A stretch of 64,000 bases of DNA from Parcubacteria group bacterium Licking1014_17 (GTDB lineage Bacteria; Patescibacteriota; Minisyncoccia; 2-02-FULL-40-12; IGHO2-01-FULL-4-A): NCBI GenBank assembly GCA_007376485.1, contig VMGJ01000001.1, positions 41,788-105,787 of the forward strand. Reading direction: 5' to 3'. The position numbers were made by a program, and so were the translations under genes. The notes beneath the pieces were generated by a model. That model searched no databases and was not told where the DNA came from. It saw nothing but the letters and a program-made list of their open reading frames with translations. Shown here one piece after another: positions 20,030 through 39,815 of this stretch (the stretch's first letter is position 1; the number at the start of each line of letters is the position of its first letter).

Positions 20030-20253
20030 TATGACCTCCGATTTTGAATAGGTTAAACACGTTTTAGATTAGCATCTATTTATCGCTGTTGTTTAAATTG
20101 TCAAAGAACAATTCCGTTATACGATATTATGGGGTTTTAGTAAATAACATGAACTAGGTAAAGCCCTCGCCATTCTTCGGCAGCGGGTTATTTTTGTCTT
20201 GTTTATAACTGATTATTGTATTGTTTGCCGGCCGTGTTACGATACAGATAACA

Positions 20254-22860
20254 ATGAAAAATGCCAATTTGGCAAGAATCACTGCGGGGAAGCAGTTTTT
20301 CGGGTTAGGGAAAAAACTCGGGCTGTTTTTGTTTGTAATTTTTTCCGTTTGGATTTTATTTTTTGTTGTCGGGAAAAATGTAGCCGCGGATATTGCTTAT
20401 AGCTGCACCACCAAAGCTTCTGGCAATTGGGACGACCCCAATATCTGGAGCGGTTGTAATCCGACTTCTGGTTATCCGCAAACGAACGACACGGTTACGA
20501 TTGACGGCAATAACCAGGTGACATTAAATGTTCCCTCAGCTACCATCGCCGGACTTTCTTTCAGGGATACGGGATCCTTGGTTCATAAAAACGGAAACTC
20601 GCTGGCAATTAGCGGCTCGGTCGCGCTAAGCCAGCCCATAAGCGGAAATGACGTGTTTAATCAATGGCAGATAAATGATGGTTCGGCGATTGCCGTCGGG
20701 CAGATTTCTTTGGGCGGAATCGGTGCCGGCAAACTTGGCAGTAAGATTATCATTACTTCCGGAACCTTGACTGCCAAGAGCGGCATCGCTTTCCTGTGTA
20801 ACGGGCTAAATTACGAAAATTGCGTTCTTGATATGTCCGGCGGCGCGGGACGCGTTAACGTGAAAGGTCCCTTAGGTGGAATTGAAAATGCGACATTAGT
20901 GGCTGGATCAGAAAGCACAATCAGTTTCATTGATGATTCAGCAGACATGGACATTTATATGTCATGGGGCAGCGGCAGTTTTAATAATATTGAGATTAAC
21001 AGCTCCGATAAAAACGTTTATTTGGGCGAGGACATAACGCCTTTGAATGTCTTAGGAAATTTAACGGTATCAAGCGGGGTGTTTAAGCAAAACGGATATA
21101 ATGTCGAGGGCAATAATGGCAAAACACTTGAGGTAAAGAACGCCGGAACCTACGTTATAGAAGGCAATGCAACATTTCCCCCGGGTTTTGGCGCTTATTC
21201 TTTCGATGAAACCAGCACCGTGGTGTACGCGCAGAATGTAAATACGGCCATTTCGGCTCAAAACTACGGCAATGTTACGATAGAACCGGATCAGCCGGCT
21301 GATAGCGGAAGCATTGTTTTCACAATTGACCAGGGCAAGATTGTTATGGCCGGTGGCTTAGCGATAGAAACAGGAATCGCAGCCAAACCGATCACGGTTG
21401 ATGCGAATAAGAACGAAGTTCTTCTGGATATCGGAATCGGAGGCGTAATGATAGCGCAAAATGCCGAATTAATAGCCAATGGCAAAAATTTTCTCGAAAA
21501 CGACGGACCGTGGATAAACGAAGGAACATTCACTCACAACAACAACGCGGTTTATTTCGGCGGCGACAAATCAGATGCATATAAATTCATTCCGGGCAAA
21601 AGTTCGTTTTACAATCTTTTTATTGTCGGCAAGAGCATTTGGGACCTGAATAGCAACGATTTAAATGTGGAGAATTTGTTGAAGGTGGACAATGGCATAC
21701 TTTCCGGCACCGGAAACGTTGAAGTTAATGGCAATGTTGATTGCGCTTTTTCCTGCGCCGGTTCAATAAACATGACCGGCGGCAATTTTACGGTTAGGGC
21801 GCCGAAGGATGTTAATTTCGGCACCATTGGCGGTTCCGCTGACTGGCTGTTTAATAATCTCACTTTTAATAATTCTGATTCATCCGAACATACAGTAACC
21901 GCAAGCGCCGGCGGAACAGGAGAAATCAAAATCAGCGGCGTATTGACCGTTGGCGACGCCGATGATATAGCTAAAACTGTTTTTGACGCGAGTAACCGGA
22001 CTTGGGAATTAAGCGGAGGAAAAACGCCGTTTGATATTGTTGCCGGTTCTTTCAAGTCAAACACCTCAACATTCAAATACACCGCGGCAGAAGATGCCAC
22101 CATAACGGCTGAAAGCTATTATAATCTTCAGATTATGCCGGGAGAAGAAAGCACTCATACGATTGCCGAGGGCGCGCTGGCGGTGAGCAGCAATCTTGAT
22201 ATTGGAGACAAGGGAGCCGGCACGGTGACGGCGGACGCGAATAATCCGACCATAGACATTGACGGCAATTTTTCAATCGCCGAAGATTCCACTTTTATCG
22301 CGCCCGGAAAAACGGTTCTTTCAATCGCCAAGAATTTTTCAAACAAAGGAATATTCACCAACAGCGGTGGGATGGTGAGTTTTGACGGTGACAAAGACAG
22401 CGTAATCAGCGGTGACAAAACGGCTTTTTATAGCTTATCAATTACGACGCCGGGCAAGAAAATGAAATTCAGCGCCGGCCAAACATTTAATATAGGAGGG
22501 GATTTCACCGTTACCGGTTCGGTAAGCGGCAGTATTTATATTTCATCCGATATAGAAGGCTCAAAATGGTTTATTAACAAACAAGGCAAAGATAACATAA
22601 CTTTTGCCGATATTAAAGATTCCGGATGCGACGAGAAAAGCGGGGATATCGCATGCGGAGAAACATCCATAAACAGCAGTAATAATGATTTCTGCTGGAA
22701 GTTCGGTTCCGGTTTAAGAATAACATCCTACCCAAACAACGCATCCAAATCGGTTATTCCGATGGCCAGCCCAGCCGGCAAAGCTTCCTATGCCGGTACC
22801 AGTACTTACACCAACCAACCCTTGCCGTCGTTAAGACCGTTACCGCCAATCCGCAGATAA
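20254..22860 (+). CDS. large S/T/G/N-rich cell-surface protein, paralog of the giant protein's N-terminal module
   Basis: ORF open from 20221; likely start ATG 20254 (MKNANLAR..) then TM 'LFLFVIFSVWILFFVV'; 'YSCTTKASGNWDDPNIWSGC' module and C-terminal 'W[FV]INKQG..DSGCD' module both shared with 22939..31227. Confidence 0.75.
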   Translation: MKNANLARITAGKQFFGLGKKLGLFLFVIFSVWILFFVVGKNVAADIAYSCTTKASGNWDDPNIWSGCNPTSGYPQTNDTVTIDGNNQVTLNVPSATIAGLSFRDTGSLVHKNGNSLAISGSVALSQPISGNDVFNQWQINDGSAIAVGQISLGGIGAGKLGSKIIITSGTLTAKSGIAFLCNGLNYENCVLDMSGGAGRVNVKGPLGGIENATLVAGSESTISFIDDSADMDIYMSWGSGSFNNIEINSSDKNVYLGEDITPLNVLGNLTVSSGVFKQNGYNVEGNNGKTLEVKNAGTYVIEGNATFPPGFGAYSFDETSTVVYAQNVNTAISAQNYGNVTIEPDQPADSGSIVFTIDQGKIVMAGGLAIETGIAAKPITVDANKNEVLLDIGIGGVMIAQNAELIANGKNFLENDGPWINEGTFTHNNNAVYFGGDKSDAYKFIPGKSSFYNLFIVGKSIWDLNSNDLNVENLLKVDNGILSGTGNVEVNGNVDCAFSCAGSINMTGGNFTVRAPKDVNFGTIGGSADWLFNNLTFNNSDSSEHTVTASAGGTGEIKISGVLTVGDADDIAKTVFDASNRTWELSGGKTPFDIVAGSFKSNTSTFKYTAAEDATITAESYYNLQIMPGEESTHTIAEGALAVSSNLDIGDKGAGTVTADANNPTIDIDGNFSIAEDSTFIAPGKTVLSIAKNFSNKGIFTNSGGMVSFDGDKDSVISGDKTAFYSLSITTPGKKMKFSAGQTFNIGGDFTVTGSVSGSIYISSDIEGSKWFINKQGKDNITFADIKDSGCDEKSGDIACGETSINSSNNDFCWKFGSGLRITSYPNNASKSVIPMASPAGKASYAGTSTYTNQPLPSLRPLPPIRR

Positions 22861-22938: not shown

Positions 22939-25900
22939 ATGAAAAGGATTGATTTAAAGAAGATCATCCATACTGGTCAGTTTTTTGCCGTGAAAAAGAT
23001 TTTCGCAACAAAAAGAACTCTCAAGCTGATTTTTGCCGCTGCCATAACAGCTACCGTCATATTTATTGTCATTTTCTCCTTTGTTAATGCCGGTCTTTTC
23101 AACTTCTATCCTCAAACCTGCCTTGGCGACTGGGAATACGCCGAAAACGCTTCCGGCAAACCCGACCTTCCTCCCGACGCCACTACCGAGAAATTTGATA
23201 AGAACAATTCCGCCTTCTTTTCCGGCGGTTACCGCAAGATATTCTGTGGCAACTTCAGAAGCAATGATGAATCCGGAGATAAAATCTTCCAGAAAGCAAA
23301 ATTGAGGTTGTCGTGGACACTCGTGCCGGACATCAACTCTGCGGTGCCTGTCATCGACCAATCCGAGTTTCAAAAAAATATACTGGATTATAGCGGGGAC
23401 GAAAAGATTATCGTGGTTCCCGATGAAGAAAAATCCGCTCCCGAAAAACAAGAGAATACGGTTTTACCTTCACCCGATGTAAGTTCATCAGCCGAAGAAA
23501 AAACACTGGAGCCGGTTCCGTCAGAATCACCCAGCCCTCAATCCGAATCGATTCCACCGACCGAGTCACCGCAATCTCCGGCGGAAGAGAATACCGCCCA
23601 AGAAAACGCTGATGTCGGCGAGCCGAGCAGTTTTAATGGAACATCTTTATTTAAAATGGGGCTTCTTGGCGTTTTCAGGACAGCGCTTACAGAGAATATC
23701 GGATCACTTCTGGGGTTAATAATGGAAATTAACAACAACAGCAGTTCCAGCTTGGAGGAAACGCTAACTCCTACAGAGCCCTCGGTTTTCATGCCCGAAA
23801 TAAGTATGGAGACGACTTCTGAAAAAGTTGAAACAAGTTCTACGCCCGCGAGCATTGCCGCCGGCGACGGCACGGCCTCAAAATCGGAATCCCCTCTGGA
23901 AAAAGAAATAATACCGCCAAAATCTTTGGATGATTTTCTTGAAATACTTTACAGCGTTGACGGCAAAAACTGGGAATCCATCGGCAATGTAAATCTTGAC
24001 AGTTTCAATAACGCCGAATTTGAGGTGCCTATTATTTCATGGAACGAACTGGCGAATCTCCAAATCAGAATCGGCGGGACGGGGCTGACGGACAGCGTGA
24101 GCGGAGTGTATTTGGACGGGATGTGGCTGGAAGTCAGTTATAGCGACAGTCAAGACGAGGTTGTTAGCGAGGATATAATGAGGGGATTGCCGAAAGTTCA
24201 GGTCAAAGACTCGGACGTTTTCAAATCAAAGAAAAAAGATTTTCGCTTTAACGAAGACGTGAAGTTTGAAATTAATCTTGGAAAAACGGCTTCCGGGAGC
24301 GTTGATGAAAACACGAAACCGCCAGCAACGCCTGAACCGTCGTCGCTTCTCAAAAATTCTTATAAAAATATTTTGGGCGCCGAGAGCGCCTTAGCCGCCG
24401 GCAGGATTGTTGAAGCCAGAGTATACAGCCCGACCGGCAAGCTGACAAATATAAAACCGTATATCAAGCAAGATACGGGGACTGAAACCGCGCAAATCTT
24501 TTTTTCGCCGCCCGGGCGAGCATACAAATCGGGCAAATACAAACTGGTCGTTGAGATTCTTCAGGATGACCGGGTAGTTGTGGCGGAACACGATTTTACC
24601 TGGGGTGTCCTTGCTTTGAACGCCAATAAGTCCATCTATATACCGGGCGAGTCGGCTTATCTTCAGTTCGCTTCGTTGAGCAATATAGGGCACACTTTGT
24701 GCGACAGCAATCTTGAGCTCATTATCACTCCGCCAAAAGGGCCAGAGTGGGTATTAAGCGTAGAGGACGGCGATATAAAAAGGAGCGACACCTGCGGACC
24801 CAATAATTATACCGACAAACCGGATTACTACGCGTATTACACGCCCGAATACACGGGCGCTTACGGACTCACACTGAAAAATTTGGATAACGGGAATGAA
24901 ATAACCGACTCCATTCAAGCCGACGGTTTGGTTGATATGGATGTGGAACGCGTCGGTGCGACGCGCATTAATCCGTTTTTGGGACAGAACTATTTTACGA
25001 CCATTAATATCAAAGCAGGTCAGCCTTTTGAGGGAGAAATTGTGGATACGCTCCCAAAGGGATTTGTGGTTATGGGCAGTTCCGATTACATTGTCCGCAA
25101 AACACCGACGGGCGACGTAGAAGTAGTATGGAGAAAAATTTTATTGCGTGGGGACACGGCTATCCTGACCTATGAATATGACCCGGCTGATATCTCGCCG
25201 GAGCTGTTTCTTCTGGGTCCGTTAAAATTTATCGCGAAGTCGGATCCGCTATCGTCTTTTTTTCAGGAAGCGCGCCAGTGGCAACTGGCGTCGGATTATT
25301 CCTGCGTCGCAAAAGCGACCGGCGCCTGGAGTGCCAGCGGCACTTGGACAACATGTAATTCAACCACACCCCAACCGACGGATACGGTTACAATCGCCAC
25401 AACATATGTTGTGACATTGGATACTTCGGCTACCATCGCCGGTCTTAGCCTTGCAAACACAGCTCAACTGAATCATCCCGGCACAAATGCCCTAACTGTG
25501 AATGGTTCAGTTGCCCTTACACCGCCGCCGACAGTCAATTTTAATCAATGGAACATTGCGGGAGGTACCGCGACCGTAACCGGCGCGATAACGTGGGGTG
25601 CCGGTGGCAGTTCAAAGGTATCTAAGATTTTAATTACAACCGGAACATTAAATGCCAGTGGCGGATTATCATTCGGCTGCCTTAATTACCCGGCAAGCTG
25701 CCTTATTGATATGTCGGGGGGCGCGGGCACTTTAAATTTAAGCGGCGCCATAACAAGCGTAACCAAAGGGCAACTAACGGCCGGGACCACCAGCACTTTC
25801 GTATACGCTGACCAGAGTGCCGACCAAACAATACAAATGGCTTGGGGCGGCGGCAGTTACAATAATCTTGGAATTAATAACGGCGCTAAGGTGGCAACCG

Positions 25901-28900
25901 TAGCCGAAAATATAACGACATCAAACGTGAGCGGTAGTATAACAGTTACCAGTGGCACTTTCAACGCCAGTAATGTTACGATTGCGGGCAACAGCGGCAA
26001 AACATTTGAGGTTGATAACGGAGCCACCTTCACGATGAGCGGCAATACAACTTTTCCGACCGGCTTTTCCACGTTTACTTTTCAGAGCACGAGCACCACA
26101 AAATACGGACAGAGTGTGGATTCGGATATTTCGGCGCAGAGCTATGGTTATCTGATAGTCAGTCCTGTTGCCGACCCCTCCAGCCACAGCGCTGATTTTT
26201 ATCTTGCTTCGGGAACCATTTCCACCGCCAGTGCTTTTATTGTCGCTTTGGGTTCCGCTGCCACTTCAGTTTTTGTTAATGCCGACACGAACGACCCGAC
26301 TCTTGATATAAACAGTTATTTGTCCATAGGCGCGAGCACGACTTTTCAGGCTTCAAATTCCGGAACTTTCACCATCAACGGCAGTTTGTTTAACGCCGGC
26401 ACGTTTACCCACAATAGCGGCACCGTCACTTTTGACAGCACCGCGAGCGGCAGGGGGATAAATATGAACGGCAGTTCACTATATAACTTGACGATTAACG
26501 GTTCCGGCGGCGAATGGTCGTCGCTCACAAATATGCTGACAGTAGCCAATGATTTAATCTTGACCGCCGGAACTTTAAACAATGCTTCCGGCAGTGCGGA
26601 CATTGAAGTCAACGGAAACGTTTCCTGTAACGGCACCTGCGGCACAGTCAGTTTGACAGCCGGAAAGTTTACCCAGAAAGTTGCCGCCGACAAAAATTTC
26701 GGAACGTCAGTGGCTGTTGCCACTGCCTGGACTTTCAATGCCTTGCATTTCACCAACAGCAGCGGCACCGACAGGATAATCACAACCAGTACCACCGGCA
26801 CCGGAACCATCACCGTAACAGCTTCCATGTCCATCGGCGTTTTCAGCGCCACCAACAAAGCCACGCTTGACGCCGACCACAGAACCTGGATTTTAAGCGG
26901 AAGTAATGAAGCCGATGCACACATTCCTCTTTCCATTGACGCCACCAAAGGAGCTCTAACCGCTCACGCATCGATTTTCCGCTACACCGGCAGTTCCACT
27001 ACCACAATCGAGGCGGCAACCTACTACAATCTTGAAGTAAAACCCGGTGGTGCCGTGACCCATACTTTCAAAGCGGGGACGACGACGGCTTACACTTTAA
27101 CCGCGGGAGACGGATCCAATAGCGGAACAATAACCACCAATACCAATAGCACGACCCTTGATATTGGTTTTGGAGGAGTTTCTATAGCTGCCTATGGCAC
27201 TCTCGTCGCCCATGCCAGCAATGCTTTTACTGTTGAAGGTTCATGGACAAACGCCGGCACTTTTACTCATAGTAGCGGCACGGTAACTTTTGACGGAACG
27301 ACGGTAGCTTCAATTCCAGTAACAACCGGCGGCAGTTCTTTCAATAATTTAATGATAGCGGGAGCGGGTAACTTCGCATTGCAGGATTCAACGACAATCG
27401 CCGGCGATTTGAAAGTAAACAGCGGCACCTTTTCTGGTGGCGTTGTCACGACTGTTAACGGCGACGTAACTTGTGTTACCACCTGCGGCACGATAAACTA
27501 TGCCAGCGGTATTTTTATACAAAACGTTGCCGGAAACAAAGCCTTCGGCACTACCGCCGGTACTGCTACGTGGACATTTAATGTTCTTCACTTTGCCGCC
27601 AGTGACGGTACTGACAGGGTGATTACCGCCAGTTCGGGTGGCACCGGAACCATCACCGTCACTGCCTCCATGTCCATCGGCGTATTCAGCGCCACTAACA
27701 AAGCTACGCTTGATGCCGGCAACAGAACATGGATTTTAAGCGGAAGCGACTCAAACGGTGATTCTCCCCTATCTATAGACGCCACTAAGGGCGCCTTAAC
27801 CGCTAACACGTCAACTTTCCGTTATACCGGCAGTTCAGCCACTACGATTGAGGCGGCTACTTATTACAATCTTGAAGTAAAACCCGGCGGCGCCGTGACC
27901 CATACTTTCAAGGCGGGGACAACAGGAGCAAATCATTTACTTACTATTGGCGACGGAGCTAATAGCGGAGTCGTAACAGCAAATACCAACAGTACTATTT
28001 TGGATGTAGGCGACGGCACAAGCGGCAGCGGCGTTTCAATCGCCGCCAGCGCCACGCTGACGGCCAACGCCAGCAACGGTTTCACGGTTTACGGCTCATG
28101 GACAAACGCCGGCACGTTTACCCACAGCAACGGCACGGTTACCTTTGACGGGGATGATGACTTAATTAGCTTTACCCTTACTCCGGCAAGCAGTCCATTC
28201 TACAATCTGACCGTAAATAATACGGGAGGCGCAATATGGACATTACAAAGCGGTCAGACTCTTATTGTAGCTAACGATTTATATATTAACGGCGGGACAC
28301 TGAACGACGATAGCGCTACTGCCATGGTTTTTAACGGAAACGTAACCTGTTCGGTGACCTGCGGTATTATCAACACCTCTGCCAATGTTATCCAAAACGT
28401 TGCCGCCAATAAAGTCTTCGGCACTACTGCCGGCACCGCCGCCTGGACTTTCAAAGCCCTTCATTTTGCCAACAGCAATGGAACCGACAGATTAATCACT
28501 ACCAGTTCGGGTGGCTCCGGAACCATCACCGTCACTGCCTCCATGTCCATTGGCGTTTTTAGCGCCACCAATAAAGCTACGCTTGATGCCGGCAATAGAA
28601 CTTGGATTTTAAGCGGGAGCGACTCAAACAGTGATCCCCCCTTAACTATTGACGCCTCCAAAGGGGTTTTGACTGCCAATACATCTACATTCAGATTTAC
28701 CGGTAGTTCCGCCACCACAATCGAACAAGCGACTTATTACAACCTTGAAGTAAAACCCGGCGGCGCCGTGACTCATACTTTCAAAGCGGGAACAACAGCG
28801 GCTTACGGGCTAACCGCTGGAGATGGAGTCAATAGCGGAGTCATAACGGCCAACACCAACAGCACAATCCTTGATATAGGTTTTGGGGGAGTTTCCATAG

Positions 28901-31227
28901 CCGCCAACAACACCCTTATTGCCCATGCCAGCAATGCTTTTACCTGCGAAGGTTCCTGGACAAACGCCGGCACATTCACCCATAGCAACGGCACGGTAAC
29001 TTTTGACGGAACTGGTTCCCACACAATTAATAACGGGGATAAAACCATTAATTCTTTTTACGGTCTAATAATTAATAAGGCGGGTGGAGTTTGGGATGTT
29101 ACGAGCAATGATATTGTAGTTCAATACTCACTTACAATAACAGCGGGAACTCTTGATTTAAACGGGCAGGGGTTATCTGCTAGTCTGACTTTGGTCAATG
29201 ATGACACTCTGCGTCTTCAAGGCGGTGAAACGATAACTGGATTAACTATGGACACAAATTCGGGGACAGTTGAATATGATGGCACTACCGGATACACCGG
29301 GCTTAAGGCAGGAAATGAATATTTTAATCTGAAATTTAGCGGTTCCGGAGGTTCTTGGACGTTAAATCATGACTTAGTCGTAAATGCCACTTTTGCTATT
29401 ACAAACGGAACAGTGGATGCGTCCGGTTCAAATTATGATATCAGCGTCGGCAAAAGCTGGAATAATGCCGGAACGTTCACCGCCCAGCAGGGTGCGGTCA
29501 CTTTTGACGGCAATTTTAATGTGGCGACATGGGGTATCACAACTGGCAGTAGTCCTTTTTATGATTTGGTAATAATCGGACCCGACCCCTATATGATCAG
29601 TAGCGACATTACTGTCCAAAACGATTTGGACGTGAACGGAAGCACCTTAAACGGCTTTGGTTCAAATGTCATGACCGTCAATGGAAATGTTACCTGCGTC
29701 ACTACTTGTGGCACTATTTCTGGATTAAATCTTTTCCAGACTGTCAGCGCAAACAAAGTCATTGGGCCCGTTACCGGCACGAACGACTGGTCGTTTGGTT
29801 TTCTTCATCTGTCCACTTCCGGAGGTTCGGACAGAACCATTACCGTGAACAGCGGAGGTAGCGGGGCATTTGCCGTGGCTTCCTCCATGTCCATCGGTGT
29901 TTACAGCGCTTCCGCGAAGACCATTCTTGACGCGGACAATAAGACATTTATATTGAACGGCAGCGACGAAGCCGATGGAGATGTTCCGTTCACCGTCGGC
30001 GCCAACGGCACTTTTACGCAAAATACTTCCACTTTCAGATTCGCCGGCACTTCGGCGACCACCGTTGCTGCGGGAACTTATTATAATTTGGAAATAAAAC
30101 CGGGCGGAACAGGCACTCACACCATAGCAAGCGGCGCTTTGAAAACGAATAATAATTTTGTAATTGGCGACGGGACGCATACCGGCTCGGTAAACGCTAC
30201 GACAAACGACCCCAATATCAACGTGGACGGAAGCTTTTCAATCGCGGCGAGTTCCGAGTTTGTTGCTTCTGACGCCGGAACATTTTCAATAGCCAAAAAC
30301 TTTTCGAATTCCGGCGCATTTACCCATAGCAATGGCACGGTAACTTTTGACTCACTTAACAACAGCACCGTCAGCGGCTCTAATACAATCTTTTATGGTT
30401 TATCGATGGCGACTGACAACAAAAAAATGAGGTTCACTGCCGGGCAGACGTTTGAAACTGACGGATTGATGACGCTTGGCGGTTCCGATGCCGACAATCA
30501 GGTTCAAATCGTTTCTACCGCCTCTGATTCGCAATGGTTTATAAATCACCAAGGGACCGAAAGCGTGAACTATACGTACGTCCATGATTCGGGTTGCGAC
30601 GCTTCCTCAACGGACATAACAGTTACTACGGGTACCGACGGCGGCAACAACGGGCTATGCTGGGTGTTCGATTATAATATAACGGTTGCGCTCTGTTCGG
30701 ATCCCGACATTGATTTTGGAACTTTGGCGCCGGGCAGCGGCAGGGTTACCAGAACCTCGTGTATTTCGATTAACACCAACAATCCCAGCGGTTATTCGAT
30801 CAGCGCCGGAAGGGACCGGGCAAGTCCGGCAACCACGCTTGCCTCCGAGGGGGATACAAGCATTAATATTTCCGATACGCTGAACGGCATTGATGTTTTT
30901 GACGGATTATCCAGTTGCACCGCCAGCCCCAATATAACTTCGCCGTGGGTTGAAGGTGCGTCAACAGGCCTCGGCTATGTTCTTTATAGAGCCGATGTCG
31001 GTAAAAGCACAACATGCTGGGGCACGGGGACAAACGAAACCGATTCCGCGAACCGATATGCTGCCTTGCCGGCTTCAAATGGACCGGCGGATGTATTTTT
31101 GAATGTGCCCGTAAATTCTCCGAATCCTTCCTATTCTTCGGTCGGCTGGAGTTTGGATATCCCCACAAATCAAATTCCCACTTCTTACGGCGGTATGGTG
31201 ATTTATTCAATTACCGCTAATCCTTAA
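22939..31227 (+). CDS. giant (2762 aa) repetitive cell-surface protein
   Basis: N-terminal TM, S/P/E-rich linker, ~285-aa tandem repeats ('TFTHSNGTVTFDG..TGTITVTASMSIGVFSATNKATLDAGNRTWILSGS..'), C-terminal ~230-aa domain shared with 33669..34433. Confidence 0.85.
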   Translation: MKRIDLKKIIHTGQFFAVKKIFATKRTLKLIFAAAITATVIFIVIFSFVNAGLFNFYPQTCLGDWEYAENASGKPDLPPDATTEKFDKNNSAFFSGGYRKIFCGNFRSNDESGDKIFQKAKLRLSWTLVPDINSAVPVIDQSEFQKNILDYSGDEKIIVVPDEEKSAPEKQENTVLPSPDVSSSAEEKTLEPVPSESPSPQSESIPPTESPQSPAEENTAQENADVGEPSSFNGTSLFKMGLLGVFRTALTENIGSLLGLIMEINNNSSSSLEETLTPTEPSVFMPEISMETTSEKVETSSTPASIAAGDGTASKSESPLEKEIIPPKSLDDFLEILYSVDGKNWESIGNVNLDSFNNAEFEVPIISWNELANLQIRIGGTGLTDSVSGVYLDGMWLEVSYSDSQDEVVSEDIMRGLPKVQVKDSDVFKSKKKDFRFNEDVKFEINLGKTASGSVDENTKPPATPEPSSLLKNSYKNILGAESALAAGRIVEARVYSPTGKLTNIKPYIKQDTGTETAQIFFSPPGRAYKSGKYKLVVEILQDDRVVVAEHDFTWGVLALNANKSIYIPGESAYLQFASLSNIGHTLCDSNLELIITPPKGPEWVLSVEDGDIKRSDTCGPNNYTDKPDYYAYYTPEYTGAYGLTLKNLDNGNEITDSIQADGLVDMDVERVGATRINPFLGQNYFTTINIKAGQPFEGEIVDTLPKGFVVMGSSDYIVRKTPTGDVEVVWRKILLRGDTAILTYEYDPADISPELFLLGPLKFIAKSDPLSSFFQEARQWQLASDYSCVAKATGAWSASGTWTTCNSTTPQPTDTVTIATTYVVTLDTSATIAGLSLANTAQLNHPGTNALTVNGSVALTPPPTVNFNQWNIAGGTATVTGAITWGAGGSSKVSKILITTGTLNASGGLSFGCLNYPASCLIDMSGGAGTLNLSGAITSVTKGQLTAGTTSTFVYADQSADQTIQMAWGGGSYNNLGINNGAKVATVAENITTSNVSGSITVTSGTFNASNVTIAGNSGKTFEVDNGATFTMSGNTTFPTGFSTFTFQSTSTTKYGQSVDSDISAQSYGYLIVSPVADPSSHSADFYLASGTISTASAFIVALGSAATSVFVNADTNDPTLDINSYLSIGASTTFQASNSGTFTINGSLFNAGTFTHNSGTVTFDSTASGRGINMNGSSLYNLTINGSGGEWSSLTNMLTVANDLILTAGTLNNASGSADIEVNGNVSCNGTCGTVSLTAGKFTQKVAADKNFGTSVAVATAWTFNALHFTNSSGTDRIITTSTTGTGTITVTASMSIGVFSATNKATLDADHRTWILSGSNEADAHIPLSIDATKGALTAHASIFRYTGSSTTTIEAATYYNLEVKPGGAVTHTFKAGTTTAYTLTAGDGSNSGTITTNTNSTTLDIGFGGVSIAAYGTLVAHASNAFTVEGSWTNAGTFTHSSGTVTFDGTTVASIPVTTGGSSFNNLMIAGAGNFALQDSTTIAGDLKVNSGTFSGGVVTTVNGDVTCVTTCGTINYASGIFIQNVAGNKAFGTTAGTATWTFNVLHFAASDGTDRVITASSGGTGTITVTASMSIGVFSATNKATLDAGNRTWILSGSDSNGDSPLSIDATKGALTANTSTFRYTGSSATTIEAATYYNLEVKPGGAVTHTFKAGTTGANHLLTIGDGANSGVVTANTNSTILDVGDGTSGSGVSIAASATLTANASNGFTVYGSWTNAGTFTHSNGTVTFDGDDDLISFTLTPASSPFYNLTVNNTGGAIWTLQSGQTLIVANDLYINGGTLNDDSATAMVFNGNVTCSVTCGIINTSANVIQNVAANKVFGTTAGTAAWTFKALHFANSNGTDRLITTSSGGSGTITVTASMSIGVFSATNKATLDAGNRTWILSGSDSNSDPPLTIDASKGVLTANTSTFRFTGSSATTIEQATYYNLEVKPGGAVTHTFKAGTTAAYGLTAGDGVNSGVITANTNSTILDIGFGGVSIAANNTLIAHASNAFTCEGSWTNAGTFTHSNGTVTFDGTGSHTINNGDKTINSFYGLIINKAGGVWDVTSNDIVVQYSLTITAGTLDLNGQGLSASLTLVNDDTLRLQGGETITGLTMDTNSGTVEYDGTTGYTGLKAGNEYFNLKFSGSGGSWTLNHDLVVNATFAITNGTVDASGSNYDISVGKSWNNAGTFTAQQGAVTFDGNFNVATWGITTGSSPFYDLVIIGPDPYMISSDITVQNDLDVNGSTLNGFGSNVMTVNGNVTCVTTCGTISGLNLFQTVSANKVIGPVTGTNDWSFGFLHLSTSGGSDRTITVNSGGSGAFAVASSMSIGVYSASAKTILDADNKTFILNGSDEADGDVPFTVGANGTFTQNTSTFRFAGTSATTVAAGTYYNLEIKPGGTGTHTIASGALKTNNNFVIGDGTHTGSVNATTNDPNINVDGSFSIAASSEFVASDAGTFSIAKNFSNSGAFTHSNGTVTFDSLNNSTVSGSNTIFYGLSMATDNKKMRFTAGQTFETDGLMTLGGSDADNQVQIVSTASDSQWFINHQGTESVNYTYVHDSGCDASSTDITVTTGTDGGNNGLCWVFDYNITVALCSDPDIDFGTLAPGSGRVTRTSCISINTNNPSGYSISAGRDRASPATTLASEGDTSINISDTLNGIDVFDGLSSCTASPNITSPWVEGASTGLGYVLYRADVGKSTTCWGTGTNETDSANRYAALPASNGPADVFLNVPVNSPNPSYSSVGWSLDIPTNQIPTSYGGMVIYSITANP
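26395..29010 (+). repeat. tandem ~856-nt (285-aa) intragenic repeats, 3 near-identical units plus degenerate units to ~30.4 kb
   Basis: Unit starts marked by 'GGCAC.TT.AC.CA.A..A.CGGCAC.GT.AC.TTTGAC' at ~26398, 27258, 28110, 28966; long identical stretches e.g. 'GTCACTGCCTCCATGTCCATCGGCGT' recurring. Confidence 0.8.
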
Positions 31228-31230
31228 CTT

Positions 31231-33588
31231 ATGTTTATCAGGGATGATTTTATAAATAGTTTTGATTATATTCTCTACAGGATAATCAGGTTCGGCATTC
31301 TGTTCGTGCCGTTTATTTCTCTGGTTGTAATTAGGAATATTTATTCGCCGTTTGAATTCAGTAAAGGGATTGTTTTCCGGGTAATCACCGAAATAATTTT
31401 TTTCATTTATGTTTATCTGGCGTTTAAATATCCGAATCTCCGCCCGTCTTTTTTTAAAAAAAGGCCGGATAAATATGTGCTGGCCGGTTTGGTCGCCTTA
31501 GTGGTTCTCGTAGTATGGCATTTTATTTCCGGATTATTCAGTTCAAGCTGGACTCTTAGTTTTTGGGGCTATATAGAGAGGATGGGCGGCATTTTCGCGT
31601 TGCTTCACTATATCGCTTTTTTTGGAGTTGCCGCTTCAATACTGCGCACGAGGAAAGAGTGGGAAAATCTTATCTGGGCTTCGGTGGCGGCGGCGCTGAT
31701 TTCATCAGTTTACGGCATTCTGCAAAAATATTCCGTAAGCGCGGTTGTCGGCGCGGACCAGAGGTTCAGAATTTTCGGGACCGTCGGCAACCCGGCTATA
31801 TTCGCCGGCTATCTGCTTTTTAATTTCTATTTTGTTTTATACCTGTCTTCGCGTCAGGAATCGAAAATACGCAGATTCCTTCTGTATTTCGCCGCATTCA
31901 TATTCGCATCCGCGATAATTTTGTCAGCCTCCCGGGGAGCGGCGGCGGCTCTAATTGTAAGTTTTGTTTTTTTGATTTTTTATATTCTGTATAAAAAAAG
32001 CGCCAGTCCATACGGAAAAAAGAAGAGCTTGATTATCGCGGCGCTCGCGGTAGTCATTATTGCCACAATTTTTTCCGGGATTGTATTAACTCGTTCCGGG
32101 TCCGGGCTCGGATATTTTTCCAGACTGACCGATTTCAGTGTGAAGAGCGGCTCCATAAATTCGCGGTTGCTTGTCTGGGGCATGGCGCTAAAAGGGATAG
32201 CCGAAAAACCGGTTTTGGGCTGGGGTCCCGAAAATTTTATAGCCGTTTATTACAAGAAATACGACCCTAAAATGTATGAGTCGCCGGCTCAAGATTATTC
32301 TTCTGACAGGGCTCATAATATTATTTTGGATTGGCTGGCTGCCGTCGGTGTTGTGGGCTTGCTGTCTTATCTGCTGATTTGGTACTGCGCGATAAGGAAA
32401 ATTGGCGCCCGGGATTACAATGATATGCCGTATTTTTCTCGAGGAGCGCTTTATGCCGCCGCCGTCGCGTATTTTGTTTTTAATTGCACTTTTTTTGACA
32501 CGACTAACACTTATCTGATGGTTATTTTTTTTATGGGCTTGGCTTTTCTTTGGGACGATTATGTGGCAGACGGAGTGGCGACAAAAGTGCCGGAAGGTAA
32601 TACCCCGGTCAACACCGTAGTCGGCGTATTGGCTCTGGTTTCCTGTTCTATTTTAATTATCTGGGCGAATATCCTGCCGTTTCTGTCAAACTATTATACA
32701 AATATGAATAAGAGGGCAAACAGCAGGGGGGATTTCGGGGAAGCGTTTAAGTATCTTGAACTCGCGAGAAACACCGCCACATGGACGGAAACCGACGCCG
32801 TGAGGAATTTAACTTCAGAACTGATAACCGCCCTGAACACGCAAGCGGATTATTTTAAAAACGAAGATAACAGAAAATCTTTCGGGGTTATCGCGCAGGA
32901 TCTTCGCGACGAGATGGAAAAACGTCCGGAGGACGCCGCTTCGTACACTTTTTTATTTAAAATGGAACAAATACTCGCGGCAAATTTTGGAAAGCAGATT
33001 AAACCCGTTGAAGATACCATCTGGACAGCAACCGCCATATTTCCCAAATTGATTCCGCTTTATTATGAACTTTATTACAGCGCCTTGATACGAAATGATT
33101 TTGAAGGAGCCACGAATGTAGCGAACAAAATATTGGAAATCAGACAGGACTTGCCCTTTGGAAAGTTTTGGCTCGCGTATGTCATAACTCGGAAGGATTT
33201 AAACGATAAAAATAGGACAAAACTGCGGAGTTCTTTAAATACCTTGGGCGACAGCTTTGACAGTTCGTTGTTTAACGCAGGCGATAATTACGGCAGTATA
33301 AAACCGTTGCTTGACGAGTTGAGTTATAAATTAAGGAAGACGGGTTATTATCTGGAGATGAGAGATTTGCATTTAATGATAGCAAAATATAAGCCTTCAA
33401 GTTATGTTTATGCGAGCTACGCGAGTTATATGATGCGTGACTTAAAATCAGCCATGAAATACGCCGACGAAGCGCTCGCTCTTGACAATAGCCTAATGAG
33501 CAGTAAGGACTATGAAACATTAGCCGACATTTATGGGGCATTGGGTGATAGAAAAAAACAAGGAGAAGCATACATAAAGATTCAATAA
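31231..33588 (+). CDS. Wzy_C (O-antigen ligase / O-oligosaccharyltransferase-like) polytopic membrane protein with C-terminal TPR repeats
   Basis: 785 aa; ~12 TM helices; 'SASRGAAAALIVSFVFLIF' matches Wzy_C/RfaL/PglL-type ligase core; C-terminal ~300 aa of TPR-like helical repeats ('DYETLADIYGALGDRKKQGEAY'). Confidence 0.65.
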   Translation: MFIRDDFINSFDYILYRIIRFGILFVPFISLVVIRNIYSPFEFSKGIVFRVITEIIFFIYVYLAFKYPNLRPSFFKKRPDKYVLAGLVALVVLVVWHFISGLFSSSWTLSFWGYIERMGGIFALLHYIAFFGVAASILRTRKEWENLIWASVAAALISSVYGILQKYSVSAVVGADQRFRIFGTVGNPAIFAGYLLFNFYFVLYLSSRQESKIRRFLLYFAAFIFASAIILSASRGAAAALIVSFVFLIFYILYKKSASPYGKKKSLIIAALAVVIIATIFSGIVLTRSGSGLGYFSRLTDFSVKSGSINSRLLVWGMALKGIAEKPVLGWGPENFIAVYYKKYDPKMYESPAQDYSSDRAHNIILDWLAAVGVVGLLSYLLIWYCAIRKIGARDYNDMPYFSRGALYAAAVAYFVFNCTFFDTTNTYLMVIFFMGLAFLWDDYVADGVATKVPEGNTPVNTVVGVLALVSCSILIIWANILPFLSNYYTNMNKRANSRGDFGEAFKYLELARNTATWTETDAVRNLTSELITALNTQADYFKNEDNRKSFGVIAQDLRDEMEKRPEDAASYTFLFKMEQILAANFGKQIKPVEDTIWTATAIFPKLIPLYYELYYSALIRNDFEGATNVANKILEIRQDLPFGKFWLAYVITRKDLNDKNRTKLRSSLNTLGDSFDSSLFNAGDNYGSIKPLLDELSYKLRKTGYYLEMRDLHLMIAKYKPSSYVYASYASYMMRDLKSAMKYADEALALDNSLMSSKDYETLADIYGALGDRKKQGEAYIKIQ

Positions 33589-33668: not shown

Positions 33669-34433
33669 ATGAGTAAAAAGCCGTCGTTTTTCTCGGCGAG
33701 TGCCGAATTGAAGGTTGTGGTATTCGTTGCCGTGTTTGTCTTCTTTTCTTGGATTTTTATTGATAACAGAATCTATTTTAATTTTTTTAAATCGTTGGAC
33801 GCCAACGCGGCCACAAGCGGAACGGCCAGCCAAAATATGAGTATTGATGTGGGTGTGGGGCTTACTTTCGTGAAATACAGCAGTGTTGCATGGCGCAATG
33901 ATTCGGAGACTCCCACGAGTACTATAACTTCCGGCACTCCTCTGCATTCTACGCAAGCCTTGCAGGTTACGACTAACGACAATTACACAATATCGGTCGG
34001 TCGAAAAAGGCAAAGCCCCAATACGACACTCGCTTCGGCCAGCGATGTGACTATTCATATAGAAGATGCGAGTACAGGTATTGATGTTTTTAACGGGCTG
34101 GCAAATTGCACTACTGCTACAAGCACGACAGCCTACTGGCCTGTCACGGGAGCTGTATCAGTCGGTATTGGCTTCAGCAACTGGAAAACCCAGATTGCCG
34201 GCGATAAAAGCTCTTGCTGGGGAACGGGGACTGTAGATAATGAATCTACCCCCTCCACAAATAGATATGCCGCGCTTCAAGCGTCAGCCAGCGCCAGTAC
34301 GTTTTTGTCAACTACTAATCATCCCTTGGGGGTTTCGTATTTTTCCGTCGTGTACCGACTAGACGTAACGGCTAGCCAAAGAGCCACCAACTATTCAGGC
34401 ACGGTTAATTATACGGCGACTACCCAACCCTGA
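33669..34433 (+). CDS. small surface protein sharing the giant protein C-terminal domain
   Basis: 254 aa; N-terminal hydrophobic anchor; aligned motifs with end of giant protein: 'IDVF(N/D)GL', 'SCWGTGT', 'NRYAAL', C-terminal 'Y(S/G)G(T/M)V.Y..TA'. Confidence 0.7.
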   Translation: MSKKPSFFSASAELKVVVFVAVFVFFSWIFIDNRIYFNFFKSLDANAATSGTASQNMSIDVGVGLTFVKYSSVAWRNDSETPTSTITSGTPLHSTQALQVTTNDNYTISVGRKRQSPNTTLASASDVTIHIEDASTGIDVFNGLANCTTATSTTAYWPVTGAVSVGIGFSNWKTQIAGDKSSCWGTGTVDNESTPSTNRYAALQASASASTFLSTTNHPLGVSYFSVVYRLDVTASQRATNYSGTVNYTATTQP

Positions 34434-34475: not shown

Positions 34476-35405
34476 ATGATGAAAAGATTTAACAAGAAAA
34501 TAATAATAACACTGGTGATTATTTTGGGTGTTTTTATGTTATCTCTTGGTTTTGTTTGGGCGATAGGCGTGGGGATATCCATTTCTCCATTGAAATATAA
34601 ATATAGTGTCGACCCAGGCACGGTTATAGATGATGTGATTAATGTCGGCAATCCGAATGCAGGTGATCTTAGAGTGAAGGTTGAGTTTCAGGATTTTATG
34701 GTTACCGAGGGTAATAATATCAAATGGATTCCAAACGACATCGAGAACCCCCATAAAATGGTTGACTGGATTGATATTGATACGGAGCCGTTTACGGTGG
34801 CCCCGGGGAAACAGGTAGCCGTGCCCTTTAAAATAAATGTCCCGAAAAACGCCACTCCGGGAGGAAAATACGCGGCAATATTTTTCAGCGAGGCGGATAA
34901 AGGTGGCGGAAATTTATTAGGCGCGATCGCACGTGTCGGGTCACTGATTATTATGAATGTTAATGGTGACGTCAAGCAAACCGGGCAGCTGGTTGATTTC
35001 ACCGGGCCCACCATAGCGTGGAGCGGACCGGTCAATTTTGTTCTTAGTATGATGAACGTGGGCACCACGCATTTTGAGGTAAAGCCGGTGGTCACGATAA
35101 ATAATTTTTTCTGGCAAAGCGCAAAGATATTGCCGGAGTCAAAATTTATTTATCCCAATGTCAAGAGAGATATTCCGATTAAATGGGAGAAAAGCAATCC
35201 GTTCGGATTGTACAGCGCCAAAGTTTCCGTAACCGATGGGGAGGGGACTGTTTTTGAGAAAACAAAATGGTTTGTCGCAATTCCGGCTACATATGCCATA
35301 ATAATACTGGCCGTTGTTTTGGTGTTATGGTTTGGAATCAGGTTCTTTAAGCATACGTTCAAAATTTCCAAGATTATTACCAGAAAAAGCAGATCGGCAG
35401 CCTGA
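34476..35405 (+). CDS. surface protein with signal peptide and C-terminal TM anchor (paralog 1)
   Basis: 309 aa; N-terminal TM/signal, 'PGGKYAAIFFSEA', C-terminal 'AIIILAVVLVLWFGIRFFKH' + basic tail. Confidence 0.65.
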   Translation: MMKRFNKKIIITLVIILGVFMLSLGFVWAIGVGISISPLKYKYSVDPGTVIDDVINVGNPNAGDLRVKVEFQDFMVTEGNNIKWIPNDIENPHKMVDWIDIDTEPFTVAPGKQVAVPFKINVPKNATPGGKYAAIFFSEADKGGGNLLGAIARVGSLIIMNVNGDVKQTGQLVDFTGPTIAWSGPVNFVLSMMNVGTTHFEVKPVVTINNFFWQSAKILPESKFIYPNVKRDIPIKWEKSNPFGLYSAKVSVTDGEGTVFEKTKWFVAIPATYAIIILAVVLVLWFGIRFFKHTFKISKIITRKSRSAA

Positions 35406-35424
35406 TATTAATTATTATTTAATA

Positions 35425-36303
35425 ATGCTTAGAAACTTTCTAGTTATTGTTGGCGTAGCTTTGGTTACGTTGTTTTTTCCCTTTTTTGTCCATGCTTACC
35501 AGGGAGGAATTCTTTTGGATCCCGTAAAAATCGAACTTGACGTTTTTGCGGGACAGGCGGCATCTAGAGAGATAACAATTACGAATCAAAATCCGTTTGC
35601 GGTGACGATCAGTCCGGAAGTGATGAATTTTAAAGTTAGTGAGAACAGCGAAATTCACTGGTATATCGGCGCGATTTCAGACCCATTGCGGAGTTCGGCC
35701 TGGCTGGAGGTAGACGAAAAATCCTTTGTCCTTAAATCCGGCGAAGCAAAAAGAGTCGGAGTCAGCGTGGCAATACCCGCCGATACCCAACCGGGCGGTA
35801 GATATGCGACCGTTTTTTTCAACAGCAAGCCCGTTGATGCTCAAAATAAAAACGCGGACGTAAGAGCCGGCACTATGGTTATCATCAATGTACCCGGCGC
35901 CATCAGTAAAGCCGGGAATATTGTCGGTTTTAATTCGCCTTTATTCGTCATCGGCGGGCCGCTTGATTTCATCGTAAAATTCGCGAACACCGGCAAGACG
36001 CATTACAACACCAAAGCGACCCTGAAAATATCCAATTTATTCTGGAATGTCGCCAATATTTCAAGCGACCAAAAATTTTTATATCCGGACGTCATACGCG
36101 AGATTCCGATCAAATGGAACACGGCTTCCCTTTTTGGCATCTACACCGCGCAGCTGTCCGTTACCGACGGCCAGGGCGTCGTACATACGGCAGAGAAACA
36201 TTTTGTAGGCGTTTCCATCAAATATTTGGCGCTGCTCATTGCCTTAGGATTTATTGCCTGGTTTGGGAGAAAAAAACTTCTGGCCAGAAAAAGTAGCGCG
36301 TAA
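35425..36303 (+). CDS. surface protein with signal peptide and C-terminal TM anchor (paralog 2)
   Basis: ORF open from 35314 but upstream gene ends 35405; ATG 35425; 'PGGRYATVFFNSK', C-terminal 'YLALLIALGFIAWFGRKKLLARK'; co-linear similarity with 34476 gene. Confidence 0.65.
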   Translation: MLRNFLVIVGVALVTLFFPFFVHAYQGGILLDPVKIELDVFAGQAASREITITNQNPFAVTISPEVMNFKVSENSEIHWYIGAISDPLRSSAWLEVDEKSFVLKSGEAKRVGVSVAIPADTQPGGRYATVFFNSKPVDAQNKNADVRAGTMVIINVPGAISKAGNIVGFNSPLFVIGGPLDFIVKFANTGKTHYNTKATLKISNLFWNVANISSDQKFLYPDVIREIPIKWNTASLFGIYTAQLSVTDGQGVVHTAEKHFVGVSIKYLALLIALGFIAWFGRKKLLARKSSA

Positions 36304-37658: not shown

Positions 37659-39815
37659 ATGAATTTTAAAGGCAAAAATATTTTTTACTACGCAAGCCGG
37701 TTGTTTTTCGGGTTCTTTGCGCTCGCCGGCATTTTTTATTTTTTATCGTGTGATGCCAGGGCGGCTGTCACAATGGACATGACCGCCTCCGCCGGCGTCA
37801 AATATGTCGGTACCACGTTTAATGTCAGTGTGAGGGTAAAGTTGGATAGTCAGAATATTGATACCGTTTCGTTGAGAAATCTGAACTTTGACCACGATAT
37901 TTTGGAAATAACCGGAACGTCCATCCAGAGCTTGTTTTCATCCCAAGCAACATTAAGAAATGTTACCGACAACACCGCGGGGACAAAAAGGCTCGATATC
38001 GGCAAATTGCCGCTAACCGATGATTACACCAATTCATCGGCAGCTACATTTGCAATTTTAACCTTTAAGGTGAAGAACGTTGGTACCGGAACGACAACCT
38101 TAACAATAGATTATGACGGTAGCCCGGGAAAATCCGGAGTTTTTTTGGCAGGAACAAATTATTTGGCGTCGGTGCTGCCGCTTGATGTTTCGCTTGGTTT
38201 GGACGACACGGGACCGGCTTTCAGCAATTGTACGCCCGTGGCTAACGTCGTGAACCAGCAGGTTACCGCCAACATAGTTTGCGACGTAACCGACACGGAG
38301 ACTGGAGTTTATCTGGGAGGTACGACTCTGACTGTCAACGGCATCACTTATTCCAATAGCGGAGCTAACCAGTACACAAGCGCCGAGATTGCCAACGGTT
38401 ACCAGTTGACCGTGAATCCCGAAGATAATCTGCCCTACAACACGTCCATAACGGTCAGCGGATCCGCGCAGGATAGCGCCTATGATGACGGTCCGGTACT
38501 GGCGCGAAATACCGGCACACTGGCGGAATACGCGTTTACCACCGAGGATGACGATGACGCGCCGACTATTTATAATAAAAGCCCCGACTCCGGCGCCACA
38601 AGTATTTCAGTGTCAACTAATGTCAGTTTTGGCATAAAAGACATTGCTGTTCCGGGAGACTATAATGGTCTTGGCGTTGATATTGATAGTATTCAAGTGA
38701 TTATATCCGCCGATAACTGGGGAACTGTAACCTACACTCACGGCGGCGAAAAACAATTCAGCCATTCCGGCAATCAATACGATTATACCATCACGATCAA
38801 CCCTTCGCCGGATTTTCCCCAAAATACCACCGTTACCGTAAGTATTGCCGCTGACGACCTGCACAGTTCACCTAATTCAGTATCCACCTCTTATTCGTTT
38901 ACCACGGCGGATACCTCTCTGCCGACATGTTCCAATTTTATACCGGCGGAGAATAAAGCGGATATCGAGCCAACCGACACTATCTCTTTTGATTGTTCCG
39001 ATTCCGGGGCAGGAATTAATATAGATACCATAAGCGTGATCGTTAATAAATCCACCTATACAAAATCAAAGAGCGGTTTTTCGTATACTGGCGACTCATC
39101 AAAATACAATATAGTCATAACTCCGCCGGGCGGATTTGCTTATGATTACGCTTTTGAGGTGATAATCAACGGCAGAGATATGAAAAGCAACTCAATAACG
39201 GAGACTAGCTACGGGTTGGCTACAAGAATACAAGGGGGAGGCGGCGGAGGCGGCGGAGGAGGAGGGGGAGGGGGAGGAGGAAATCAATGCCCGACCTGCC
39301 AAGTATGCCCGGCGCAACCATCGCCGGAATTTTCCAATGGGCCTTTGCCGACAGAAAATCCTTACTCAACTCCAAAACCCGGGAAAACACCCAATCCGGC
39401 CATTTGTCCTTCAATAGCACCCGAAGTTCCTTATCAAATACCGTTTGCCCCGACAATTGAAGATATGCAATCTGTCGCGTTGCAAAAAGTCAACGGGACC
39501 GATGTTCAAGGCATCACCATTTATCAAATATCCGGACCGATGATTACATTGGAAGGAACCGCGAAACCGCAGGGTTTGGTTGGCCTCCAAATGGAACCGG
39601 GACCGATTGTGGTCCAAACAATCGCCGACAACAAAGGTGAATGGAAAGTAACCATATCCAATGTTCTGGGTCCCGCCGAAAATCTGCTATACGCGATCTC
39701 CCGCAACCCAATTAACGGCGCCACGGAAAAAAAATTCCTGATTATCCTTCATAACACCTATAAAGGCATAGATGCTTATCTCCGGGCGCAAAAGATGAGA
39801 ACGCAACTTTGGTAG
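37659..39815 (+). CDS. cell-surface protein: cohesin-like N-terminal domain, three Ig-like repeats, poly-Gly + Pro-rich linker, C-terminal domain
   Basis: Signal/TM; 'TTFNVSVRVKLDSQNIDTVSLRNLNFDHDILEITG..ATFAILTFKVKNVGTGTTTLTIDYD' cohesin-like; repeated 'D(T/D)..P..S(N/P)..P' Ig-like units; 16xGly; 'NQCPTCQVCPAQPSPE..'. Confidence 0.6.
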   Translation: MNFKGKNIFYYASRLFFGFFALAGIFYFLSCDARAAVTMDMTASAGVKYVGTTFNVSVRVKLDSQNIDTVSLRNLNFDHDILEITGTSIQSLFSSQATLRNVTDNTAGTKRLDIGKLPLTDDYTNSSAATFAILTFKVKNVGTGTTTLTIDYDGSPGKSGVFLAGTNYLASVLPLDVSLGLDDTGPAFSNCTPVANVVNQQVTANIVCDVTDTETGVYLGGTTLTVNGITYSNSGANQYTSAEIANGYQLTVNPEDNLPYNTSITVSGSAQDSAYDDGPVLARNTGTLAEYAFTTEDDDDAPTIYNKSPDSGATSISVSTNVSFGIKDIAVPGDYNGLGVDIDSIQVIISADNWGTVTYTHGGEKQFSHSGNQYDYTITINPSPDFPQNTTVTVSIAADDLHSSPNSVSTSYSFTTADTSLPTCSNFIPAENKADIEPTDTISFDCSDSGAGINIDTISVIVNKSTYTKSKSGFSYTGDSSKYNIVITPPGGFAYDYAFEVIINGRDMKSNSITETSYGLATRIQGGGGGGGGGGGGGGGGNQCPTCQVCPAQPSPEFSNGPLPTENPYSTPKPGKTPNPAICPSIAPEVPYQIPFAPTIEDMQSVALQKVNGTDVQGITIYQISGPMITLEGTAKPQGLVGLQMEPGPIVVQTIADNKGEWKVTISNVLGPAENLLYAISRNPINGATEKKFLIILHNTYKGIDAYLRAQKMRTQLW
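39232..39282 (+). repeat. GGN codon homopolymer (16 consecutive Gly)
   Basis: 'GGGGGAGGCGGCGGAGGCGGCGGAGGAGGAGGGGGAGGGGGAGGAGGA'. Confidence 0.85.

Follow-up and report, generated by a model that had tools for sequence, protein, structure and literature searches.

Two kinds of described systems come closest to the locus reported here. The WxL/Csc clusters of Lactobacillales, Enterococcus and Listeria encode a small CscB protein, a large CscC protein and a WxLIP protein, CscA (DUF916-DUF3324-transmembrane helix); their defining layout is a large protein, a small protein with the C-terminal domain of the large one, and WxLIP proteins (PMC1534035, PMC9772566, PMC10599100). The WxL domain has two Trp-x-Leu motifs, the first of which is preceded by Asp-x-Arg-Gly (PMC1534035), and some large WxL proteins also bear a β-helical adhesin domain (PMC9772566). 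We analyzed a 64,000-nucleotide (nt) stretch of DNA (the window) from Parcubacteria group bacterium Licking1014_17, a member of the candidate phyla radiation, in which a giant gene carries an array of tandem units of about 855 nt. The encoded protein of 2762 amino acids (aa) is 100% identical to 'hypothetical protein CEN90_57' of this metagenome-assembled genome (MAG), which has a single 188-kb contig on record for it.

The second kind comprises the β-helical toxins and adhesins VacA p55, pertactin, Pet, Vag8, UpaB, HMW1 and EtpA. Like the unit described here, these are Thr/Ser/Asn/Gly-rich long β-solenoids in very large extracellular proteins. Sequence identity is only 10-16%, and, unlike in these proteins, the helix of the giant protein is built from a higher-order module of about 285 residues that was duplicated as a block. 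The length of a β-helix rod scales with the number of its rungs, each of which rises 4.8 Å. As a general analogue only, among ultra-small or predatory bacteria with giant repeat-rich proteins, giant genes of the Omnitrophota, a different phylum, are reportedly very long open reading frames (ORFs) with internal repeats in uncultivated bacteria (bioRxiv 10.1101/2023.11.21.568195).

The explanation that we favor, with a probability of roughly 0.7, is that a β-helix rod module of about 285 residues was triplicated long ago in this lineage alone, giving rise to the array and lengthening a surface fibre. Each unit would form roughly nine or more rungs of a right-handed parallel β-helix, and the units, placed end to end, would make one continuous rod within a 2762-residue cell-surface protein. 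Export would be by the Sec pathway, and the protein would stay attached through its N-terminal hydrophobic segment or its C-terminal domain. The number of units would then set how long the rod is, with each unit adding roughly 4-6 nm if about 9-12 rungs are taken at 4.8 Å each. The C-terminal domain, a small paralogue of it and two WxLIP-like proteins may form a wall-associated platform, as in WxL/Csc clusters, from which the rod would present the fibre to a host cell or a substrate. The segments of the giant gene are as follows.

22939-31227 (+): giant ORF, intact, 2762 aa, with an N-terminal hydrophobic anchor at about aa 28-50
22939-25296 (+): Pro/Ser/Glu-rich linker and conserved N-domain, aa 1-786, 28-41% identical to other Parcubacteria giant proteins
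25297-26397 (+): β-helix head and diverged unit U0, aa 787-1153, homologous to the 879-aa upstream paralogue from aa 47 of the latter
26398-27255 (+): unit U1, aa 1154-1439, 858 nt
27256-28110 (+): unit U2, aa 1440-1724, 855 nt
28111-28968 (+): unit U3, aa 1725-2010, 858 nt, modelled as a right-handed parallel β-helix (pLDDT 92)
28969-29469 (+): two partial units, aa 2011-2104 and 2101-2175, each covering only the first ~72 unit positions (sub-module A)
29470-30312 (+): unit U4, aa 2178-2458, 843 nt, 41-47% aa identity to U1-U3, synonymous sites saturated
30313-30681 (+): cap segment, aa 2459-2581, beginning with the opening motif of the unit (about 30311)
30682-31227 (+): C-terminal domain, aa 2582-2762, sharing about 41-43% identity with the body of the small protein encoded at 33669-34433

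From the N- to the C-terminus, the giant protein thus reads as anchor, linker with N-domain, β-helix head, unit array, cap and C-terminal domain. We anchored the unit boundaries on a recurring GTFTH motif and on repeat finding. The N-terminal region (22939-25296) has no Pfam match. Upstream of the array, U0 is a weak unit-like stretch, in which aa 915-1153 match positions 56-284 of the hidden Markov model (HMM) of the unit. The cap also closes the β-helix region of 27 related loci and of the upstream paralogue, at 32-50% identity. The mechanical ORF list further holds two antisense ORFs within the repeat region, at 26346-26948 (−, 200 aa) and 29725-30180 (−, 151 aa), which are taken as by-products of the composition of the coding strand.

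The initial annotation had noticed three consecutive units of about 855 nt in this gene, and we find them as 858, 855 and 858 nt, in frame and head to tail, at 26398-28968. The interval that it gave, 26395-29010, starts 3 nt before this array and ends 42 nt after it. It also had more divergent units following to about 30.4 kb, and these are the two partial units, U4 and the cap with its opening motif. Tandem Repeats Finder gave no call for the array because its maximum period is 500. The similarity among U1-U3 is far above chance, and each unit scores 460-490 bits in the HMM search. The copies had been called near-identical. This does not describe them: the codon-aligned nt identity over whole units (about 840 nt) is only 66.7-70.7%, and the aa identity is 66-72%. 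The best 90-nt window reaches 92% nt identity, in the U2-U3 pair only, and the longest exact run in common is 34 nt for U2-U3 and 23 nt for both U1-U2 and U1-U3. A 65-mer quoted in the initial annotation is exact at 27658, has 9 mismatches at 26815 and 5 mismatches at 28531.

We then turn to the age of the copies. The proportion of synonymous differences (pS) among U1-U3 is 0.60-0.68 (Nei-Gojobori dS about 1.2-1.7), with a ratio of nonsynonymous to synonymous substitution (dN/dS) of 0.14-0.19. Identity at four-fold degenerate sites is 45-56%, compared with 30% expected from base composition. The duplication is therefore not recent; synonymous sites are near saturation, and the copies have diverged to about 70% nt identity under purifying selection. 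Thus, the earlier proposal of a recent intragenic duplication holds for an intragenic tandem duplication and fails for its recency.

The similarity among U1-U3 is a mosaic. Over the first 75 residues (sub-module A), the three units share 45-47% aa identity and 22-39% four-fold identity, which is the chance level, and they are no closer among themselves than to U4. Over the last ~210 residues (sub-module B), they share 74-82% aa identity and 48-59% four-fold identity, and the excess of similarity is confined to this part. Sub-module B has accumulated about 0.6-0.95 substitutions per silent site (F81-type correction, with chance identity taken from base composition). In the U2-U3 pair, 12 consecutive four-fold sites are identical (permutation p = 0.009, uncorrected for three pairs). 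We infer that sub-module B was homogenised later by gene conversion, or that the units are mosaic in origin. We read the array as an old one in which the B parts have a more recent common ancestry, which gene conversion would explain most simply.

Performing AlphaFold2 modelling of U3 with an alignment of 34 family units, we obtained an all-β model of 27 strands with high confidence (predicted local distance difference test score, pLDDT, 92.1; predicted TM score, pTM, 0.91). The pLDDT was 55 when only the four window units were used. The model predicts a right-handed parallel β-helix of the pectin-lyase-like fold, and the structures that it matches best are toxin and adhesin domains of the passenger or rod type, at 10-16% sequence identity. 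With an intact ORF, an N-terminal hydrophobic anchor and a unit predicted to be a β-helix, the early suggestion of a fibre-like surface protein agrees with our results. A Cys-x3-Cys pair (N-G-N-V-x-C-x3-C-G; for example, giant aa 1512 and 1516 in U2) is invariant in U1-U4 and present in a subset of the family units; it may form a disulfide or bind metal in a β-helix turn.

Scanning the giant protein, its sub-regions and the neighbouring proteins with Pfam and NCBIfam, we found only sub-threshold matches to DUF6423, G8 and WxLIP_PGBD. DUF6423 (PF19987) is the only Pfam model that touches the unit, in sub-module B of U2 (giant aa 1555-1667, E 7.2e-6). This match lies below threshold (26.2 bits against a gathering cut-off of 29.7) and spans 113 of 285 residues; among the 34 family units the model matches one, at E 0.037. 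DUF6423 is also listed for the giant protein in the source database. The Pfam scans of the same proteins showed no autotransporter barrel and no two-partner-secretion family, and judging from these domain searches the giant protein is probably not a type V secretion passenger. To our knowledge, Parcubacteria are not expected to have an outer membrane.

To place the unit within a family, we searched a profile of U1-U4 against 1.84 billion representative proteins by exhaustive HMM search. At E ≤ 1e-3 the family comprises 656 representative proteins, and at E ≤ 1e-30 it comprises 154, mostly between 2000 and 6700 aa in length and with 2-23 matched stretches each. A word-indexed protein search was nearly blind to it, with 5 distant matches for the whole protein and 3 for the unit profile. 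Other proteins contain 78 full-length copies of the unit, which begin and end at the same unit positions (251-325 aa, most 255-290). The unit is therefore a discrete module and not an arbitrary phase of a short repeat. Fragments of it also occur alone, especially positions 1-72. Three of the ten top family matches have names, namely a generic 'hypothetical protein', an unclassified 'bacterium' MAG and a 'Patescibacteria group bacterium' MAG, and the loci that lie in GTDB genomes are all from Patescibacteria MAGs (3/3). These data show that the module is a discrete and widespread building block of giant proteins, whose source-named members come from Patescibacteria or unclassified MAGs.

Within this family, U1-U3 are mutual best matches at 66-69% aa identity (BLAST) and are at most 50% identical to units elsewhere in the sampled proteins. 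As they are closest to each other, the triplication is specific to this lineage. In other multi-unit proteins, 54 of 68 units are nearer to a unit of a different protein than to a sibling. Of the block duplications in the listed family members, the triplication of U1-U3 is the latest, yet it is old in absolute terms. Measured in unit-equivalents, the unit-like content of the listed family proteins is about 3 at the median and 6.7 at most; relatives with the same N-terminal domain have between none detected and 2.7, compared with 5.3 in the giant protein.

As no Pfam family covers the module, which has clear boundaries, a confident model and occurrences in at least 656 representative giant proteins, it could be defined as a domain. 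Defining it would allow large stretches of 'hypothetical' giant proteins to be annotated in Patescibacteria and unclassified MAGs.

We also examined the genes that flank the giant gene. The relevant neighbours are listed below.

20221-22860 (+): upstream mini-paralogue, 879 aa, with anchor, head, one full unit (aa 435-709, nt 21523-22347) and cap
31231-33588 (+): Wzy_C / O-antigen-ligase-like membrane protein, 785 aa, starting 4 nt past the end coordinate of the giant gene (31227)
33669-34433 (+): small anchored protein o254, 254 aa, whose body is the C-terminal domain of the giant protein
34476-35405 (+): WxLIP (DUF916)-like protein o309, 309 aa, with a C-terminal transmembrane helix
35425-36303 (+): second WxLIP-like paralogue, 32% identical to o309, with a C-terminal transmembrane helix

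The mini-paralogue aligns to giant aa 774-1502 (39% identity) and 2145-2577 (40%). Giant aa 2582-2762 align to o254 aa 72-254 at 41% identity (E 6e-25; 43% in the multiple alignment). Members of the o254 family are mostly 220-295 aa long and unannotated, those with names come from Parcubacteria or Yanofskybacteria, and no Pfam family or PDB sequence matches them. When related loci and family proteins were searched iteratively with an HMM of the C-terminal domain, the giant protein itself was the only one recovered. The mechanical ORF of the second WxLIP-like gene runs from 35314, and its likely ATG start is at 35425. The Wzy_C-like protein and the giant protein may be functionally linked. The surroundings are ordinary chromosomal ones, with genes for aminoacyl-tRNA synthetases, MreB/MreC, PBP2, GroEL, TGT, a UvrD-type helicase, MurJ and an ABC exporter.

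How does this locus compare with a WxL/Csc cluster? The last domain of the giant protein recurs as the body of the small protein o254, so that a large and a small protein share a C-terminal domain. Adjacent to them are two proteins of about 300 aa, each with a transmembrane helix at its C-terminus and a remote similarity to WxLIP_PGBD. Pfam WxLIP_PGBD matches 9 of 12 o309-like proteins, at E 3.3e-7 in the best case, and the o309 family has EfmWxLIP1 as its first-ranked PDB profile match (E 0.018). We counted WxLIP-like genes at non-identical loci (L002-L073) with enough downstream sequence, and found one within 8 kb downstream on the same strand in 16 of 31 module-bearing giant genes (for example, L054 12235-13185, L032 16406-17335, L035 16504-17478 and L008 16624-17628). 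The locus also departs from the described clusters. No LPxTG protein is seen at this locus. The giant protein exceeds CscC proteins 3-5 times in length and retains a hydrophobic anchor at its N-terminus, and its host belongs to the Patescibacteria instead of the Bacillota.

A number of results weigh against our explanation of the array as a wall-mounted β-helix rod. On the side of the wall platform, o309 itself matches Pfam WxLIP_PGBD only at E 1.4e-4 and 22.3 bits, below the cut-off of 27.3, and the second WxLIP domain (HBD, DUF3324) was not detected in the WxLIP-like proteins. The Pfam WxL domain gave no match at E ≤ 5 in the window proteins or at E ≤ 1 in 18 family members, and a profile search of the C-terminal-domain family against PDB returned nothing relevant. 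The first motif of the WxL domain with its preceding Asp-x-Arg-Gly, as described in PMC1534035, is absent from the C-terminal-domain alignment. On the side of the rod, Foldseek of the unit model against PDB gave nothing significant, and profile searches with the unit family found no Pfam or PDB sequence match for the module. The rung count and the nanometres per unit are estimates, and the function is suggested by fold analogy and gene context alone.

In place of DxRG-WxL, the C-terminal-domain alignment has GR[DK]R, and near the C-terminus a single aromatic-x-aliphatic motif, G[WFY]x[LI]D. By analogy, the locus may work like a WxL cluster. We do not file it as one because the shared domain is not recognised as WxL and the first motif is absent. 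A bolder version can be entertained as a tentative possibility: the giant protein, the small protein and the WxLIP-like proteins would be the Patescibacteria counterpart of WxL/Csc, with a wall-binding domain diverged past recognition and with the β-helix module setting length, duplicated in blocks to tune the reach of an adhesive tip toward the host. In the top-ranked literature, no paper links WxL or DUF916 with Patescibacteria, each being on one topic or the other. The frequent presence of WxLIP-like genes after module-bearing giants, together with the small C-terminal-domain paralogue at this locus, yields a hypothesis for how such fibres are mounted on the wall. It concerns ultra-small and probably host-dependent bacteria.

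The units could instead be working β-helices that bind or cleave polysaccharide, comparable to tailspike depolymerases, pectate or alginate lyases, or adhesins such as tapirins, with the variable first 75 residues giving each unit its specificity. The triplication would in that case supply multiple sites for binding or catalysis. We regard this as unlikely, although it fares better than the two explanations treated after it. It would account for the strong differences among U1-U3 in sub-module A beside a conserved sub-module B, and for a Cys-x3-Cys pair that is kept in all four units. Patescibacteria epibionts are known to need several adhesins (PMC10633639), which would also suit it. However, the structural relatives of the unit are toxin and adhesin rods and passengers rather than enzymes, and the unit has no Pfam lyase or hydrolase match. 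Over whole units there is no sign of positive selection, dN/dS being low; in sub-module A the silent sites are saturated. A structural repeat would explain better than an enzyme why hundreds of proteins carry the module 2-23 times, frequently in fragments.

A recent duplication, with a copy number that varies between cells or strains by unequal recombination and an array that is perhaps mis-assembled (collapsed or expanded), appears very improbable. What speaks for it is the head-to-tail order and near-equal length of the units, the local windows of up to 92% nt identity and the variation of unit content among family members. The 34-nt exact run and the significant run of identical silent sites in U2-U3 do indicate some past recombination between copies. 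However, whole units are only 67-71% identical in nt with a pS of 0.60-0.68, and their first 75 codons are at chance at silent sites. As general background, the minimum that RecA-type recombination usually needs is about the length of these exact runs (23-34 nt), which are below usual assembly k-mer and read lengths. Judged against such minimal recombination substrates, homologous unequal crossing-over should now be rare. As little exact identity remains, the array is probably now a stable structural feature rather than a hot spot of copy-number change. The initial annotation had also warned of a collapse in assembly; this risk is low because no exact repeat exceeds 34 nt, every copy is distinct and the ORF is uninterrupted.

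We also looked for length variation among relatives of the locus. Relatives that came from several samples had giant genes of the same length and sequence in each (L008/L009/L010 and L015/L017). A scan of metagenomes for exact DNA matches to the locus gave 0. We found no strains or close orthologues; the loci in GTDB genomes and JGI metagenomes are distant, with aa identities of at most 47%. We rejected one candidate for copy-number variation, a 222-aa duplication that distinguishes L046 from L047. It is a 100%-identical 665-nt duplication (nt 1-665 and 676-1340) that lies exactly at the contig end of L046, and it looks like an assembly artefact. The repeat of the giant gene is genuine, old and well resolved; it calls for no special assembly caution and is not evidence of ongoing length variation.

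That a metagenome assembler wrongly joined strain variants of one unit in tandem is hardly credible, even with a metagenome-assembled genome and a relative whose contig-end exact duplication resembles such an artefact. Nucleotide differences between the units amount to about 30%, and aa differences over the first 75 residues to 53-55%, far beyond strain variation. Their in-frame junctions fall at module boundaries that recur in 78 units from other proteins. Both ends of the 64-kb window are at least 22 kb away from the array, the contig is recorded at 188 kb, and multi-unit arrays are the rule in the family.

Three minor observations concern other parts of the window. We considered whether a diversity-generating retroelement lies behind the variation of sub-module A and rejected this, as no reverse transcriptase was present among the 39 window ORFs, a subset of the total, that were scanned with Pfam. 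About 9 kb upstream of the giant gene lie two PMT_2-type glycosyltransferase genes (10642-12447 and 12447-14015, both −); the Ser/Thr/Asn-rich fibre may be glycosylated. Downstream, the ORF at 37659-39815 (+) contains a 9-nt tandem repeat, AGGCGGAGG, in 5.3 copies (39233-39280), which codes for 16 consecutive glycines; the 718-aa product has Big_5 Ig-like domains. Being short, unlike the 855-nt units, the AGGCGGAGG repeat is plausibly length-variable.

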